A DNA stretch of 64,000 bases from positions 6,343 through 70,342 of the forward strand of contig JAZROV010000002.1 of NCBI GenBank assembly GCA_045648885.1, in the 5' to 3' direction. Position 1 is the stretch's first letter. Each line of letters opens with the position of its first letter. Shown here in pieces: positions 4,399-15,729 of the stretch. The stretch is from Candidatus Enterousia sp. GTDB taxonomy: Bacteria > Pseudomonadota > Alphaproteobacteria > Rs-D84. The translations under genes were made by a program, and so were the position numbers. A model generated the notes under the pieces. It had not been told where the DNA came from. It saw only the letters and a program-made list of their open reading frames with translations, and did not search any database.

Positions 4399-5724
4399 TT
4401 ATATATTTAATGTTTGAACAACATCATTAAAAGGATTTGTATTTAATATCATATATGGTTCCATTCCATTAATTTTTAAATGATCTTGGGGGATAGAAAG
4501 ATTTGGGACTATTATTTCCCCGCTTTCAGTTTTATACAGAGAATATTTTAAAATTCCTGAATTTTGCTCCATAACAAAAGAACTACCTTTGTCTTCCTCA
4601 TAATCTTTTTGTTTCGGCAGTGTATCACTGGAAATCGCAACTTCACCATCTTTGTTATCAAAGCCGACATTGAAAACCCCGTCACCGGTCAGGTTTTCCA
4701 GATATGTCGCGTTTAATATACTCGCCGTTGTTTCCCCCAGATTTAACTCTTTATCTATTCCCAAACTTAAATTGTTACCAATTTCTATATTACCACTTAA
4801 TGATATATTTTGTGCATACAACGTGCCAGCAGTCGCATCAATTGTTTTCGTATCAATTTCTTTCAGATTGTCGACATCTCCCAGAACAGTCAGTTTTCCA
4901 ATATGTGGGCTGCCATCTGATGTTTTTATTTCTGCGCCTGATGAAAACGTCGCATTATTGACATTCACAATACCTGAGCCGGCATTCAAAAATAACGCCT
5001 GGGCCGAATTAATGTTTGCTATACCACAATCATCCCCAACACAACAAACATCCCCACTGCAACCGTCTGGATTTGGAACCGATATATTTTTTACGTTATA
5101 AAGGTTATTAAAATTCATATTCAAAGTGCGTTCCATTCGATTTAAATGCGCACCACCAATCGTTCCACGATGCAGATATCTATCATTGTCCGCTTCGCTG
5201 AAATCATGTGTTATTTTGAACACCAAATCTCCGGGGGTTAAATCATCATCAAAACTGACCGCCCAATCATTTGAATATGCAATATTGTCATCACTGACCA
5301 GCGCAGCATCCGAACCAATATATTTTGCGATATTTGCAGTCCGATACGCAGTTCCCAAAGAAAACAACAAATATACCTCTATGGAAGAGCCACCAACCAT
5401 ATTATTTCTGAACACCCAACCGCTTTGCGCCAATGGCGCAATCGACGCTAATTCTTCTGCAGTAAACGGGACCGCAGAACCGTCATCAGATAAAAATTCA
5501 GACTGATTTACACGAACAAAATCTACCACTGGATCGCGCAATTTCACGATTTGGTTTGCCAGTGCAACATCTTTCACAGTATTATTCATATCTGCAATAT
5601 GATAATACATAAACGGCACCAACATCAAAACCAATGCAACCGCCAAAATAACTTCCAGCATTGACGCACCACGTTGGGTTTTAAAATTTTGTCTTAAAAA
5701 ATTTTTTTGTTTAACCACGACCAC
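4399..5724 (-). CDS. large prepilin-type N-terminal domain protein, paralog B
   Basis: 441 aa. GTG start with GGGGTG SD. Leader ..FKTQRG|ASMLEVILAVALVLMLVPF. Shared blocks RYLHR and LNMNFNNLYNVKNI. Confidence 0.7.
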   Translation of the reverse strand: MVVVKQKNFLRQNFKTQRGASMLEVILAVALVLMLVPFMYYHIADMNNTVKDVALANQIVKLRDPVVDFVRVNQSEFLSDDGSAVPFTAEELASIAPLAQSGWVFRNNMVGGSSIEVYLLFSLGTAYRTANIAKYIGSDAALVSDDNIAYSNDWAVSFDDDLTPGDLVFKITHDFSEADNDRYLHRGTIGGAHLNRMERTLNMNFNNLYNVKNISVPNPDGCSGDVCCVGDDCGIANINSAQALFLNAGSGIVNVNNATFSSGAEIKTSDGSPHIGKLTVLGDVDNLKEIDTKTIDATAGTLYAQNISLSGNIEIGNNLSLGIDKELNLGETTASILNATYLENLTGDGVFNVGFDNKDGEVAISSDTLPKQKDYEEDKGSSFVMEQNSGILKYSLYKTESGEIIVPNLSIPQDHLKINGMEPYMILNTNPFNDVVQTLNI

Positions 5725-6511
5725 TATTACACCCCGATCTGTTTCCAGTCTTGCACAACACTTGATTTATACGACGTTCTGCCCGTTCCAAATAAATATA
5801 TTTACACAATATATTTTGCATCAAAGATCCGTTATTCGTACTGATTTGATTTTTGAGATCCAAATCCTGTTTCAACACAGTAGCACAATTTATCGTAGTT
5901 GTATTATTCGTTTTTTCCGGATGATCAATTATTGCTAATTTATTCAACAAACAATTCCCCCCCGAACAATCAATCAAATCAACATCTGGAAATGCAGACA
6001 TTCCCGACGGAAACATCACAGCCCGAACGCCATCATTTGGATGTTCTTTCAAATACGCAAAATTTTTATCTCTGAATGTGATTTTAGATGCATAAAGGAC
6101 CCGCGTATGTATTCCACTTCCACCACTAGATGTTTCGTAAGTATTTCCTATGACATTCAAAAATTTACTGACCCCTATTTTGCTCGCAACACCGGTTGCA
6201 GAATTTGCAGTAAAACTGTTACCTATATTCAGATAAACAGGATGTTCTGATGTTCCAATAAATAAATTACCGCAACTCGAAGGTTTAAGGGTCTCTTCTT
6301 CATATGCCGTTGGCAAAAGCCCCAGACCAACCGCACTGTCTGTTTTTCCAATTTGCCCCCCAACCGACACATTCAAATTTTGCAGATATTTACCATATAG
6401 ACCAACAGTTTGCAATTCGGCATTATCAACATTCAAAGAACTGGTTTTCACGCTTAATGCAGAATCGGTGCTGCTTTTTTTATTAAAACGAAATTTGTCG
6501 CCTTTTAACAA
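5711..6511 (-). CDS. C-terminal portion of pilin-like paralog C (same frame as 6554..7207, separated by one TGA)
   Basis: 266-aa ORF whose only possible start is a TTG with no SD, and no ATG for more than 150 codons. N/G/S-rich like the C-terminal halves of paralogs A and B, with a DCSGGNC motif resembling GCSGDVCC of paralog B. Confidence 0.5.
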   Translation of the reverse strand: MLKGDKFRFNKKSSTDSALSVKTSSLNVDNAELQTVGLYGKYLQNLNVSVGGQIGKTDSAVGLGLLPTAYEEETLKPSSCGNLFIGTSEHPVYLNIGNSFTANSATGVASKIGVSKFLNVIGNTYETSSGGSGIHTRVLYASKITFRDKNFAYLKEHPNDGVRAVMFPSGMSAFPDVDLIDCSGGNCLLNKLAIIDHPEKTNNTTTINCATVLKQDLDLKNQISTNNGSLMQNILCKYIYLERAERRINQVLCKTGNRSGCNSGRG

Positions 6512-6553
6512 TCTAAAAACGTTTGCATTTGATGATGAACCGCCCCCAGTCTG

Positions 6554-7207
6554 TCATTTTAAACCACCCCCCATCAGCGCCAGTGTATCAATGCGCGCAC
6601 GATAAAAATTTCCAGATTCTGCATGCAATTCACCAACATTTTCAATACGATTCCAATTCATATCTAATTCAGTCAAAAAACCAATATGTTCGTCAGTTTC
6701 ACGACGCGAAACAATGTCTGAATAAATCGTATCAACCGGCACAGATACATACACATTTCCATTAGATGCATGCGCAAAAAAACCAACCATACGCGCCAAT
6801 TCCGCCAATTGATAATCTGATAAATCACCACGCGTAGCAACAACATTAGCTTTGAGAGTATAACCATTGCCATTTTCTTTTGCTTTTTTATTGATGTCCA
6901 AACTGATATTTTGGTTCAAAGATGTCGTTGTATTAAATCCACTGGGCAAACCATACGGCATCAACGTATCAATCAAGGTTTGTCCAGAATAACTGGTATT
7001 ACCATAATTAAAACCGTCCTGGATAGATTTATCACGCAAATAAACACGTGCAACATCATGCAAAGTTTCAATAGACGTTTTCGCAGAATACATTTTTGCA
7101 GACATATCTCGCGCCGCCAATTTGTTCGCCAAAAACGGCATAAACGCAAACACCAACGTCAGCGCTAACAAGGCCTGCAAAAGAAAATTTCCGTTTTGTT
7201 TTTGCAA
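6554..7207 (-). CDS. prepilin-type N-terminal portion of pilin-like paralog C
   Basis: 217 aa. TTG start 5 nt after an AGGAGAG SD. Leader MQKQNG|NFLLQALLALTLVFAFMPF (Gln at +5). Shared block LDMNWNRIENVGEL about 25 aa before the TGA stop. Confidence 0.6.
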   Translation of the reverse strand: MQKQNGNFLLQALLALTLVFAFMPFLANKLAARDMSAKMYSAKTSIETLHDVARVYLRDKSIQDGFNYGNTSYSGQTLIDTLMPYGLPSGFNTTTSLNQNISLDINKKAKENGNGYTLKANVVATRGDLSDYQLAELARMVGFFAHASNGNVYVSVPVDTIYSDIVSRRETDEHIGFLTELDMNWNRIENVGELHAESGNFYRARIDTLALMGGGLK

Positions 7208-11555: not shown

Positions 11556-13958
11556 TTATAATTGCGCTTTGACTTCTTGGACTTCATAGCATTCAACGCG
11601 GTCGCCCTCTTTCAGGTCGTTATATTTATCGAAACTCATACCGAATTCGACACCGTTGGATACTTCGTTGACTTCATTCTTTTCGCGACGCAATTCGCCG
11701 ATTTTTCCGTCATAGATAACGACGTTGTTCCGCAACAGGCGCACAAACGCAGATTTTTTGATTGTGCCCTCTGACACGCGACAACCGGCAACACGTGTGC
11801 CTTTGCCCACAGTGAACAAAGCGATAACATCGGCATATCCAATAAAGTTTTCGTGTTTTTCTGGCGCTAATTTTCCAGACAAAATTTCTTTGATTTCGTC
11901 TGTGATACGATAAACAACACTGTGATAACGAATATCAACACCGTTGTTGCGCGCCATATCACGCACAGCAGAATCTGCACGAACATTAAACGCAATTATA
12001 ACCGCACCCGATGCAGTCGCCAAACGAATATCGCCTTCTGTGATTTGACCAACCCCAGACGACAACAATTCAACCGCCGCTTTGTCTGAATTAAAACCAC
12101 GCAACATGTCAGAAATTGCTTCGACTGAACCTTGGACGTCTGCACGCAAAATAATTGGCAAAGTCAATTTTTTCGTTTCGTCACGTTTCGCAAACAATTC
12201 TTCGAGTGACGAACGTTTAACCGCGTTCGCTTTGTCTTTCGCTTTCTGGACACGATATGCCGCGACTTCACGTGTTTGCGCTTCGGTTTCCATAACATGC
12301 AATTCGTCGCCTGCATTTGGAACAGATTCCAAGCCCAACACCATTGCTGGCTGGCCTGGTTTAACACTTTTCACGCGAACGCCATTTGAATTTATCAGAC
12401 CGCGCACACGACCAAATGTTTCACCAACAACGAACACATCACCAACAGACAAAGTTCCCTGGCGCATCAAAACAGTTGCAACCGCACCCAGACCTTTTTC
12501 CATTTTGGCTTCGACAACATAGGCAGACGCCAGCATATCAGGATCGGCCTTTAAATCCATAATTTCAGATTGCAACAAAATTGCTTCTTCCAGTTTATCC
12601 AGACCCATTTTTGTTTTTGCAGATATTTCAACACATTGAACATCGCCGCCCATATCTTCGACCTGGACTTCTTGTTGCAACAAATCTGTTTTTACGCGCA
12701 TTGGATCGGCTTCTGGTAAATCGCATTTATTTATCGCGACAATAAACGGAACATGTGCAGCACGAATATGATTTATCGCTTCAATAGTTTGCGGCATGAT
12801 TGAATCATTCGCAGCCACAACCAAAACAACGATATCCGCAATTTGTGCGCCACGTGCGCGCATCGCTGTAAATGTTTCGTGTCCCGGTGTATCCAAAAAT
12901 GTGATTATTTCCCCAGATTTAGTTTTTACTTCATACGAAGAAATATGCTGGGTAATGCCGCCCGCTTCGCCTGCGACGACATTTGCATTACGAAACGCGT
13001 CCAACAGCGAAGTTTTACCGTGATCAACGTGGCCTACAACAGTCACAACCGGCGCACGTTTTTGTAAATTATCTGGATTTGGTTGTTGTTCCAAGATGTT
13101 TGCGTATGGTTTTACATCAACACGTTTTACCGTCGCACCAAATTCAGATGCCACCAATTCCGCAGTGTCTGCATCAATAGATTGATTTTGTGATGCCATC
13201 ATACCCATTTCCATCAATTTTTTGATGACATTACCAACCTTTTCAGCCATGGCGGCCGCCAAATCTTTCACCGTTATCGTATCAGACAGCGTCACAACAT
13301 GTTCAACCTTTTGTGGGGCAGAAAATGCTGCACGCGCTTTTTCACGAAAACGTTTCAATGACGCTTCGCTGCGACGGCGATTTGCACCACGCAGACCGAT
13401 TTCATCATCATCTTCATCTTCGCCGCCGCCGATGACAATATCATGAATTGAAATTTTACCGCTTTTGTTAAAATCTTTTTTGAAACGATTTTGTTTTCCA
13501 AAACGCGTATCATTTTCATCTTTGTCATATCCGCGATTGCCATGATTTTGCGCAGCAACATTTGATTTTTTGTTTTCGTGAGTGTTTTCACGTGGTGGAA
13601 CATTCACAATATCTTCGACAATTTGTTCCGCTTCGCTTTCACGCTGAGCCAGTTGTTCTTTGACCGCTTCGTATTCACGATTTTCGCGTTCAATTTCCGC
13701 TTCACGGGCGCGACGTTCGGCTTCTTCTTGGGCTTCACGTTTTTTGCGTTCTTCATCTCTGGCTTTGGCTGCAGCCAACACAGCGCGCAATTTTTCATCT
13801 GCTACGCTGCGTGTTGGTTCAACTTTTTTCGGTTCATCACGCAATTCGTTATTCCCAGGTGCAACAATGCGACGCCGTCTTTCGACAAAGACAGCGTCCC
13901 CTTTCTTGCTTTGCACTGCGTCAATTGTTACTGATTTTCCAAGTGTCAATGTTGCCAT
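11556..13958 (-). CDS. infB: translation initiation factor IF-2
   Basis: 800 aa. G1 [13 protein letters not shown]3 DTPGHETF, G4 NKCD, charged K/E/R-rich N-terminus. Confidence 0.97.
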
Positions 13959-13981
13959 TTTTTAACCTTTGGTTAAATTTA

Positions 13982-14671
13982 TTATTCTTCGTCTTCGGTA
14001 TTTGGAACAATTCCATATGCTAATTCGCGCGCTTTCATAACAACACGTTCAGCCAAACTGTTCGACATATTGTCTTCGCCCAGAATTTCAACCAATTCAT
14101 CAGATGCTAAATCTGCCAAATCAGACAAAGATTTAACGTCGTTTTCACCCAATTTCATGATAATTGGACGTTTGATGAAATCGAATTTTAACAAATCGTC
14201 GCTCATACCCATTTTGTGACCATTGTCAAAATAATCTTGTTCTTGTTTTGCCAGATATGCCCGTGCACGATTTTGCAATTCAACCGCCAATTCTGTGTTA
14301 AAGCCTTCGATTGATTCCAATTCAGATTGTTCAACATAGGCGATTTCTTCGATTGTTCTGAAACCTTCTGTGATTAACAATTGCGCGATTGTATCATCGA
14401 CATCCAGTGCACCAGTAAACAATTCTGTTTTTTCTTTGAATTCTTTGGCGCGACGTTCTTGTTCTTCTGCTTCGTTCATGACATCGATATTCCAACCTGT
14501 TAATTGAGACGCCAAACGAACATTTTGACCACGACGACCAATTGCCAAAGATTGTTGATCTTCGGTCACAACAACCGCAGCAGTATGTGTATCTTCGTCA
14601 ACAATGATTTTTGCGACCTTGGCTGGTTGCATAGCATTCACGATAAACACAGCAGGATCTTCTGAATACAA
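13982..14671 (-). CDS. nusA: NusA, C-terminal segment (KH domains and acidic tail)
   Basis: ..DPAVFIVNAMQPAKVAKIIVDEDTHTAAVVV..AIGRRGQNVRLASQLTGWNIDVM aligns to E. coli NusA as I recall it. Same reading frame as 14687..15529. Confidence 0.85.
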   Translation of the reverse strand: MYSEDPAVFIVNAMQPAKVAKIIVDEDTHTAAVVVTEDQQSLAIGRRGQNVRLASQLTGWNIDVMNEAEEQERRAKEFKEKTELFTGALDVDDTIAQLLITEGFRTIEEIAYVEQSELESIEGFNTELAVELQNRARAYLAKQEQDYFDNGHKMGMSDDLLKFDFIKRPIIMKLGENDVKSLSDLADLASDELVEILGEDNMSNSLAERVVMKARELAYGIVPNTEDEE

Positions 14672-14686
14672 AATAACATCGATTTT

Positions 14687-15529
14687 TTAACCATGACATT
14701 CGTTGATAACCGGTTGAATACGTGTTCCCTTAATACCGACAGTCATCCCCACTGCATCAATAGATGGATCCTGGGTTTCAACTGCGATTTTTGCATGCGA
14801 ACCCGGCGCACGTGATACAGATTTAATTTTGATAATACCTTCATAGATTTCAGGCACTTCCTGGGTGAATAATTTTTCCATAAAGCCCGGATGTGTTCTG
14901 GTCAAGAAAATTTGTGGACCTGAATTAGAACGCACAACGTCCATAATCAACGCACGAACACGATCACCCACAGCCAGACGTTCGCCCGGAATCAATTCTG
15001 TATTTTTGATATAGCCTTCTGCTTTGCCGTTGATATCGACAAAAACGTTTCCAAATTCAATACGTTTAACAACACCACTGACGATATCACCAATATTGTC
15101 TTTGAATTCTTCGTATTGGTTGCCTTTTTCAGCATCACGCACACGCGCAGTCATAATTTGACGTGCGGTTTGAAACGCCATACGACCAAATTCTGGTTCT
15201 GGCAACATATCTTCTACAACATCGCCCACAGACGGATTTTTCGCGTATTTTTTCGCTTTTTCAACTGTCAACATCGTGTTCGCATCGTATTCATCGCCCA
15301 TACTTTCAGGTGATTCAATAACAGTAAACAAACGTTTTACATGGATTGCGCCATTTTTACGGTCAATTTGTGCAACGATATTAAACTCTTCGCCATATTT
15401 ATGTTTTGCAATCTTGGCAATCGCGATTTCCAAAGATTCAATCACAGTTTCACGATCTATCATTTTTTCTTGGGCCAAAGAATCAATCGCTAACAATAAA
15501 TCTTGACGTGGCATAGATTCAAAAGACAT
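14687..15529 (-). CDS. nusA: NusA, N-terminal segment (NTD, S1, start of KH1), ending at an in-frame TAA
   Basis: 280 aa. The N-terminal domain and S1 region (GDIVSGVVKRIEFGNVFVDI) are recognisable. It ends ..RIQPVINECHG*, where E. coli has ..RVQAVSTELGGE. Confidence 0.85.
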   Translation of the reverse strand: MSFESMPRQDLLLAIDSLAQEKMIDRETVIESLEIAIAKIAKHKYGEEFNIVAQIDRKNGAIHVKRLFTVIESPESMGDEYDANTMLTVEKAKKYAKNPSVGDVVEDMLPEPEFGRMAFQTARQIMTARVRDAEKGNQYEEFKDNIGDIVSGVVKRIEFGNVFVDINGKAEGYIKNTELIPGERLAVGDRVRALIMDVVRSNSGPQIFLTRTHPGFMEKLFTQEVPEIYEGIIKIKSVSRAPGSHAKIAVETQDPSIDAVGMTVGIKGTRIQPVINECHG

Positions 15530-15729
15530 TTTGTGTACTCCTTACGTATATTTTATTGCCTTTTTATTTTTAAAGGCGGGGTTTTTTCAACCCCGCCCTT
15601 AAAAAAAACTTTTAAGAACATCCCTATTATTATGTCCGAATCGCAAAAATGCAAGAAAAAAATGTGCCGACACGGTTCAATATGCCTTTATTCTTGACGG
15701 GTGGGAATTTGGGCTTTATACTTAAAATT

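Follow-up and report, generated by a model that had tools for sequence, protein, structure and literature searches.

Whether a bacterium can carry a nusA gene interrupted by a stop codon, and what it would then make from that gene, is the question raised by a stretch of DNA from a Candidatus Enterousia sp. (contig JAZROV010000002.1 of assembly GCA_045648885.1), of which 64,000 nucleotides, here called the window, were analysed. The genus belongs to the order Rs-D84 and is represented by metagenome-assembled genomes (MAGs) from the gut, which are reduced in size; the host genome amounts to 835,793 bp in 21 contigs, with a completeness of 94.5%. Its nusA lacks an uninterrupted frame for the full protein, owing to a TAA at codon 281. 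The whole reading frame lies on the minus strand (13982..15529), where it runs from an ATG at 15529 to the natural TAA at 13982 and comprises 515 codons plus this natural stop. The premature TAA (14687..14689, minus strand) is part of a tetranucleotide TAAA and stands in place of the GAA codon of an invariant glutamate, Glu281, in the minus-strand context CAT GGT TAA AAA ATC GAT. The substitution sits at 14689 and reads G>T on the coding strand, C>A on the plus strand. Upstream lies an ORF of 280 aa (14687..15529, minus strand), which ends at the premature TAA. The downstream in-frame part (13982..14686, minus strand) has 234 codons plus the natural stop and contains an ORF of 229 aa (13982..14671, minus strand). 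The first-pass annotation of this DNA had described two NusA ORFs in one minus-strand frame, parted by the TAA at 14689..14687, and reading the sequence bears this out. When the TAA is read through, a NusA of 515 residues results.

The read-through protein has the Pfam domains of NusA in canonical order, all encoded on the minus strand: NusA_N (residues 10-135; 15502..15125), S1 (residues 143-202; 15103..14924), KH1 (Pfam KH_5, residues 242-309, continuing to 14603), KH2 (Pfam KH_NusA_C, residues ~318-353; 14578..14471) and the HhH/acidic repeat (Pfam HHH_5, residues 377-423; 14401..14261). The break had been placed inside KH1, and with the stop at residue 281 it does fall within KH_5. The upstream ORF accordingly holds NusA_N, S1 and the first 39 residues of KH1, and the downstream part holds the rest of KH1, KH2 and the HhH/acidic repeat. 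The NCBIfam profile TIGR01953 is matched at positions 2-263 before the stop and continues at 266-339 after it, so the gene contains no indel at this point. The upstream piece alone scores 257.8 bits against this profile, above the equivalog cut-off of 253.4, and the 234 downstream codons contain no additional stops or frameshifts. Furthermore, the E. coli NusA motif given earlier for this site matches the alignment of a solved NusA, NELNGERVDIVLW. The gene for IF-2, infB (800 aa; 11556..13958, minus strand), begins 24 nt past the natural nusA stop and is followed by rbfA. The order nusA-infB is also found at the loci of relatives, and the interrupted gene occupies the canonical nusA-infB-rbfA position.

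The comparison with the nusA of close relatives, proposed earlier as a check, places the stop in this genome alone. The frame is open, with 512-541 aa, in all 18 genomes of the same genus, each of which has a single nusA match, and only the present genome ends early (at 284 aa in this comparison). At the eleven congener loci that were fetched, the codon reads GAA without exception, in the context GGT/GGC/GGG GAA AAA/AAG; the difference thus comes down to one G>T at window position 14689, as had been claimed for a single substitution from GAA to TAA. A pattern scan open to both G and T at position 14689 picked up seven further public contigs (two genomic and five metagenomic), and all have G there; they belong to other species, at no more than 87% nucleotide identity. 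Glu281 is invariant in the 120 closest homologs (the best 120 matches in a collection of 5.8 billion proteins), all of which are full length, and the block around it, NECHGEKIDVIL, is almost invariant among them. It is also kept in 25 of the 25 additional cluster members that were checked. Together with the collinear profile match, this agrees with the earlier statement that the stop hits a conserved glutamate without an indel.

No exact match came up for the 280-aa piece, the 229-aa piece, the full protein with the glutamate restored or IF-2, and two large protein searches and a cluster listing contained nothing above 95.5% identity. A look-up with RbfA led to one Logan contig of 1,152 bp from run SRR28378876, which stops short of nusA. 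It is ~99% identical in nucleotides to the window at 10.6-11.7 kb, with 8 substitutions and a T8/T9 homopolymer indel in 1,057 bp. Judged from this identity, the same species is present in an independent public run.

The age of the stop can be assessed from the half of the gene that lies behind it. The closest relative (G002) has 95% amino acid and 86% nucleotide identity in nusA, and against it dN/dS is 0.035 upstream and 0.042 downstream of the stop, with dS ~0.9. Amino acid changes unique to the NusA of this genome number two upstream and five downstream, within the range of intact relatives. At columns conserved in at least 95% of the 120 homologs there is one departure upstream and there are two downstream, and at least two such downstream departures are seen in 36% of the intact homologs. 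Since the downstream half is undecayed by dN/dS, at its conserved columns and in its freedom from further lesions, the stop is evolutionarily instantaneous, as would be expected of an artefact as well as of a very young mutation. A decaying pseudogene is disfavoured on the same grounds: dN/dS is ~0.04 on both sides, and there are neither further defects nor excess changes at conserved sites. Three candidates had been put forward in the first-pass annotation: an error in sequencing, suppression or readthrough, and a nusA that is split or decaying. The first of these survives, the second is disfavoured, and of the third only a young nonsense allele is left.

If the stop is real, full-length NusA might still be produced by readthrough, either by near-cognate decoding of UAA or by a suppressor tRNA encoded in the unassembled part of the genome. 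The perfect preservation of the downstream half would be expected from this, and the incomplete tRNA set (no tRNA-Asn and no tRNA-Lys(UUU)) makes a suppressor in the missing ~5% conceivable. However, a search of the whole assembly with ARAGORN gave 42 tRNAs, none of which has a UUA, CUA or UCA anticodon, and two class-I GGQ release factors, RF1 and RF2, are encoded. Of the 610 ORFs that have a homolog in the nearest relative, 462 (76%) are terminated by TAA, 88 by TGA and 60 by TAG, and TAAA, identical to the signal inside nusA, is the commonest stop tetranucleotide (259 genes). Most genes would thus be misread if an efficient ochre suppressor were present. Moreover, unlike selected readthrough sites, the stop is conserved in no relative. 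We consider readthrough extremely unlikely, and the suppression proposed earlier is disfavoured by the same tRNA, release factor and stop codon counts.

Broader kinds of recoding were also considered. Reassignment of TAA is untenable with 462 of 610 conserved genes ending in this codon, no UUA tRNA and both RF1 and RF2 present. A programmed readthrough or recoding site was rejected as well, the stop being found in no relative and the codon being GAA in 11 of 11 congeners. Frameshifting, hopping or transcriptional slippage at the A6 run was discarded too: no matching landing codon lies downstream, and a shift cannot bypass the stop because both halves share one frame. Whether real or erroneous, the nusA stop is not evidence for an altered genetic code or programmed recoding in the lineage.

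The absence of tRNA-Asn and tRNA-Lys(UUU) from the assembly is an observation in its own right, as AAA is a very common codon; the two missing genes probably lie in the unassembled ~5% of the genome. The tmRNA identified by ARAGORN is of the permuted two-piece alphaproteobacterial type.

Translation might alternatively terminate at the TAA and start again shortly after it, at a TTG at 14671 or a nearby GTG or ATG, with the two polypeptides reassembling into a working NusA. The intact downstream part and the position of the in-frame TTG, five codons past the stop, speak for this possibility. Termination and reinitiation over short distances are possible without a Shine-Dalgarno (SD) motif. The TTG (codon 287; 14669..14671, minus strand) is the first canonical restart codon, followed by GTG at 14650, GTG at 14641 and ATG at 14632 (all minus strand), and none of the four has an SD motif. 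The genuine starts of nusA and infB are, on the other hand, preceded by the SD motifs AAGGAG and AAGG, respectively. In the ribosome-binding region of nusA (15530..15548, minus strand), AAGGAG is followed by 7 nt and then the ATG, which shows that SD-led initiation is used by this genome. No SD-like motif precedes an ATG, GTG or TTG within 60 codons past the stop; the sole SD-like match there (AAGG) stands before the non-canonical ATC/ATT codons 308-309. It had been stated that the downstream piece could restart only at a TTG or an internal ATG, neither with an SD. This is confirmed within the 60 codons, and the two GTGs likewise lack one. Against a two-piece protein it also counts that the break lies inside KH1, that residues 281-286 would be lost in addition, that no relative is split there and that the arrangement is too young to have been shaped by selection. 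We therefore regard it as very unlikely. A designed split of nusA is disfavoured, with a break inside KH1 that is absent from 18 of 18 congeners and canonical restarts without SD. That the stop is real and the locus nevertheless supplies a working NusA, by reinitiation at the TTG or by near-cognate readthrough specific to this site, has in our estimate a very slim chance.

This copy could also be a fresh pseudogene, with an intact second nusA hidden in the unassembled ~5% of the genome. The completeness of 94.5% and the incomplete tRNA set leave some space for this. However, tblastn finds one nusA in this genome and no second, exactly one match occurs in each of the 18 congeners, and the interrupted copy is the one in the canonical nusA-infB-rbfA position. 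A hidden second copy is thus hardly credible, and the search for one, which had been named as a check, gave no support for it. A pseudogene backed by a second copy is accordingly disfavoured.

The first-pass annotation had also pointed to a second in-frame stop, a TGA at 6554, and read two stops in 64 kb as a possible sign of something affecting the whole genome. The second stop is confirmed: a pilin-like gene (5711-7207, minus strand) is split by a TGA (6556..6554) into 217 and 280 aa, and the gene is one open frame of 450-476 aa in 11 of 12 congeners, the exception being G011, in which it is also broken. The gene encodes a prepilin-type N-terminus and has no Pfam match. The TGA is located in a variable Gly-rich insert (MGGGLK*QTGGGSSS), and the protein is ~50% identical to its orthologs. 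As an indication of a genome-wide condition, the two stops did not hold up. A census was run in both directions between this genome and all of the G002 assembly (845,597 bp), using tblastn alignments that cross stops, split HSPs and single proteins that match two adjacent collinear open frames. Among ~540 comparable genes it gave two same-frame interruptions and no frameshifts in the present genome, and none of either in G002; nusA and the pilin-like gene are the only interrupted real genes found in the whole genome. All candidates for frameshifts turned out, on reading, to be spurious 5' extensions or antisense ORFs. Genome-wide recoding or pseudogenisation was rejected on the strength of this census and of the stop usage given above.

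Two further observations came from the rest of the assembly. At C6:7661-9244 (minus strand) an ORF of 527 aa corresponds to a G002 ortholog of 340 aa (C6:68228-69250), with both ends matching in frame, which implies an insertion of ~170-190 aa here or a deletion in G002. Outside the window, at C2:150507-155339 (plus strand), there are three tandem paralogs of 526 aa each, and the triplet is kept in G002 (C5:135270-140042).

With these explanations set aside, a young nonsense allele and a consensus error are left as nearly balanced survivors. On the latter view, nusA is intact in the cells, with GAA at this codon, and the T at 14689 arose as an artefact of base calling, of polishing, of damage to the library (G>T being the 8-oxoG type), or of a thin or mixed-strain local assembly. 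This is what such an error would be expected to look like, a single base at an invariant site without decay on either side, in a gene that is single-copy and conserved in every relative. Furthermore, the two interruptions of the genome are only 8.1 kb apart, as they would be after a local dip in quality; the chance of this for two independent events in 836 kb is ~2%. The proximity could thus reflect a local quality problem. It could also be coincidence, because the pilin-like family evolves fast and is also broken in G011. Other signs of a poor consensus are lacking: the assembly has no Ns and contigs of up to 180 kb, and the census found no frameshifts in ~540 genes. Consensus substitution errors are rare at decent short-read depth, which also counts against this reading.

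The sequence around nusA was compared in the same light. Over 3.8 kb, this genome alone departs 18 times from columns that do not vary among 11 relatives, an ordinary number given a range of 2-38 in the relatives, and this argues against an error and for a young allele. However, 12 of the 18 are transversions, against ~37% in the pooled relatives, which is more in line with an error; the excess could be a mutational bias or noise. In this region (window 13285-15578), 5 of the 18 private changes are G>T or C>A, and there are three adjacent double changes. A MutM motif was not found in the genome by a crude regular expression. Synteny and identity to G002 are ordinary in the nusA region, without any local anomaly.

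The base rate of broken nusA genes in public data also bears on the matter. In a protein search for fragments, nusA proved to be broken internally on four other Enterousia contigs. Two of these loci are scaffold gaps of 47 and 100 Ns and one is a junction in a contig of 2.9x coverage, so that three of the four (L070, L071 and L072) have a technical origin. The fourth, L069 (ENA ERZ1667814 scaffold_179142; 85% nucleotide identity), has a 4-nt deletion at nusA codon 131, GCGCGTGTGCGTGATGC vs GCTCGAGAG----ATGC, with a frameshift at the boundary of the N-terminal domain and S1. The four loci share no position or pattern, and a recurrent biological breakage of nusA in the genus was rejected. That most such breaks in public Enterousia assemblies are technical adds to the case for an error and weakens that for a real allele. 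We give the consensus error a substantial probability, somewhat below even. Should it apply, the result is an annotation warning only, and the nusA of this MAG should not be labelled a pseudogene or a split gene.

Our best explanation, to which we give a probability just short of even, is that a single, private and very young G-to-T change gave the sampled population an ordinary ochre stop in place of the Glu281 codon. The substitution, its restriction to this genome, the absence of decay and the absence of rescue features are all observed. Translation would end at the TAA, since TAAA is a standard terminator here and both release factors are present. The product would be a fragment of 280 residues that comprises the N-terminal domain, which binds RNA polymerase, together with S1 and an incomplete KH1; the remainder of KH1, KH2 and the C-terminal repeat would be missing. 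With no rescue encoded, the allele would be a hypomorph or a loss-of-function variant that selection has yet to remove. The otherwise clean assembly, without Ns and without frameshifts in ~540 genes, argues against a sloppy consensus and for the young allele.

A truncated nusA could perhaps be tolerated for a while. In E. coli nusA cannot be deleted completely, but the reduced-genome strain MDS42 accepts a truncated NusA in which the N-terminal domain is retained (PMC4496710). This domain enhances pausing on its own, whereas stimulation of intrinsic termination depends on the others (PMC4496710). Since the pause-enhancing activity is carried by the N-terminal domain alone, temporary tolerance may hold, and the MDS42 findings suggest that, in a genome of 0.84 Mb, some function could remain in a fragment of 280 aa that includes the N-terminal domain and S1. 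We infer that the base may be real in the cells and that the fragment may be made and be partly functional. That the fragment alone sustains this reduced-genome symbiont, as a natural counterpart of the MDS42 truncation, is in our view less likely than not, though more probable than a working NusA made by reinitiation or readthrough. Members of Rs-D84 including Enterousia are probably symbionts or parasites that depend on a partner, with genomes below 1 Mb (PMC12306168). In such a small-genome, partner-dependent setting, drift may hold deleterious alleles.

Several points stand against the young allele. Glu281 is invariant, and purifying selection on nusA is strong. The genome also encodes Rho, which would be expected to act on the ~700 nt of nusA mRNA left untranslated and to cause polarity on infB; with such polarity ahead of an essential gene, a stop allele carried by the majority should be costly. 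The lineage has a coding density near 0.90 and is reported to show no accumulation of pseudogenes (PMC12306168). The near-absence of broken genes in the present genome fits this report. The 8.1-kb distance to the only other interrupted gene, which may point to a local quality problem, weighs on the same side.

Comparison with known systems helps to place the putative allele. In MDS42, whose genome contains little DNA of horizontal origin, the truncated NusA likewise keeps the N-terminal domain and is without the KH and C-terminal parts (PMC4496710). It was, however, engineered in E. coli, whereas the present case is a putative natural point change at residue 281, with S1 kept, in an uncultured alphaproteobacterium. 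Young nonsense alleles private to one strain also consist of one base in one genome, with an undecayed downstream frame and no rescue signals, but here the cost should be unusually high, since the affected gene is one that is usually essential or nearly so, with infB behind it in the same operon. Errors that fragment genes in draft genomes and metagenomes, the target of Kastor (PMC12007338), similarly break a conserved gene in one assembly only. These are mostly indels or gaps, whereas the change in nusA is a clean substitution and no frameshifts were detected. Stop reassignment and programmed readthrough share with this locus an in-frame stop at a sense position of a conserved protein, but here most conserved genes end in TAA, a cognate tRNA is missing from the 42 identified, RF1 and RF2 are both encoded and the relatives lack the stop. 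If the stop is real, this would be a natural bacterium living, at least briefly, with a NusA that consists of the N-terminal domain and S1. It would echo a laboratory truncation for which tolerance is confined to a genome rid of horizontally acquired DNA, and would bear on how far the control of transcription termination can shrink in reduced genomes.

A minor feature was noted in front of the gene. Between nusA and a divergent lptF-like gene, in the probable 5' leader of nusA, there is a strong hairpin at 15574-15608 (minus strand), laid out as a U-run, GGGCGGGG, a loop, CCCCGCC and an A-rich tail, and it is no classical terminator on either strand. Two adjacent changes private to this genome (15578 and 15577) lie within its 3' arm. 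The 111-nt fold has a dG of -30.3 kcal/mol (z -4.85), and 0 of 200 shuffles fold equally well. Because NusA autoregulates its own operon in model bacteria, the hairpin may be a leader or attenuator element.
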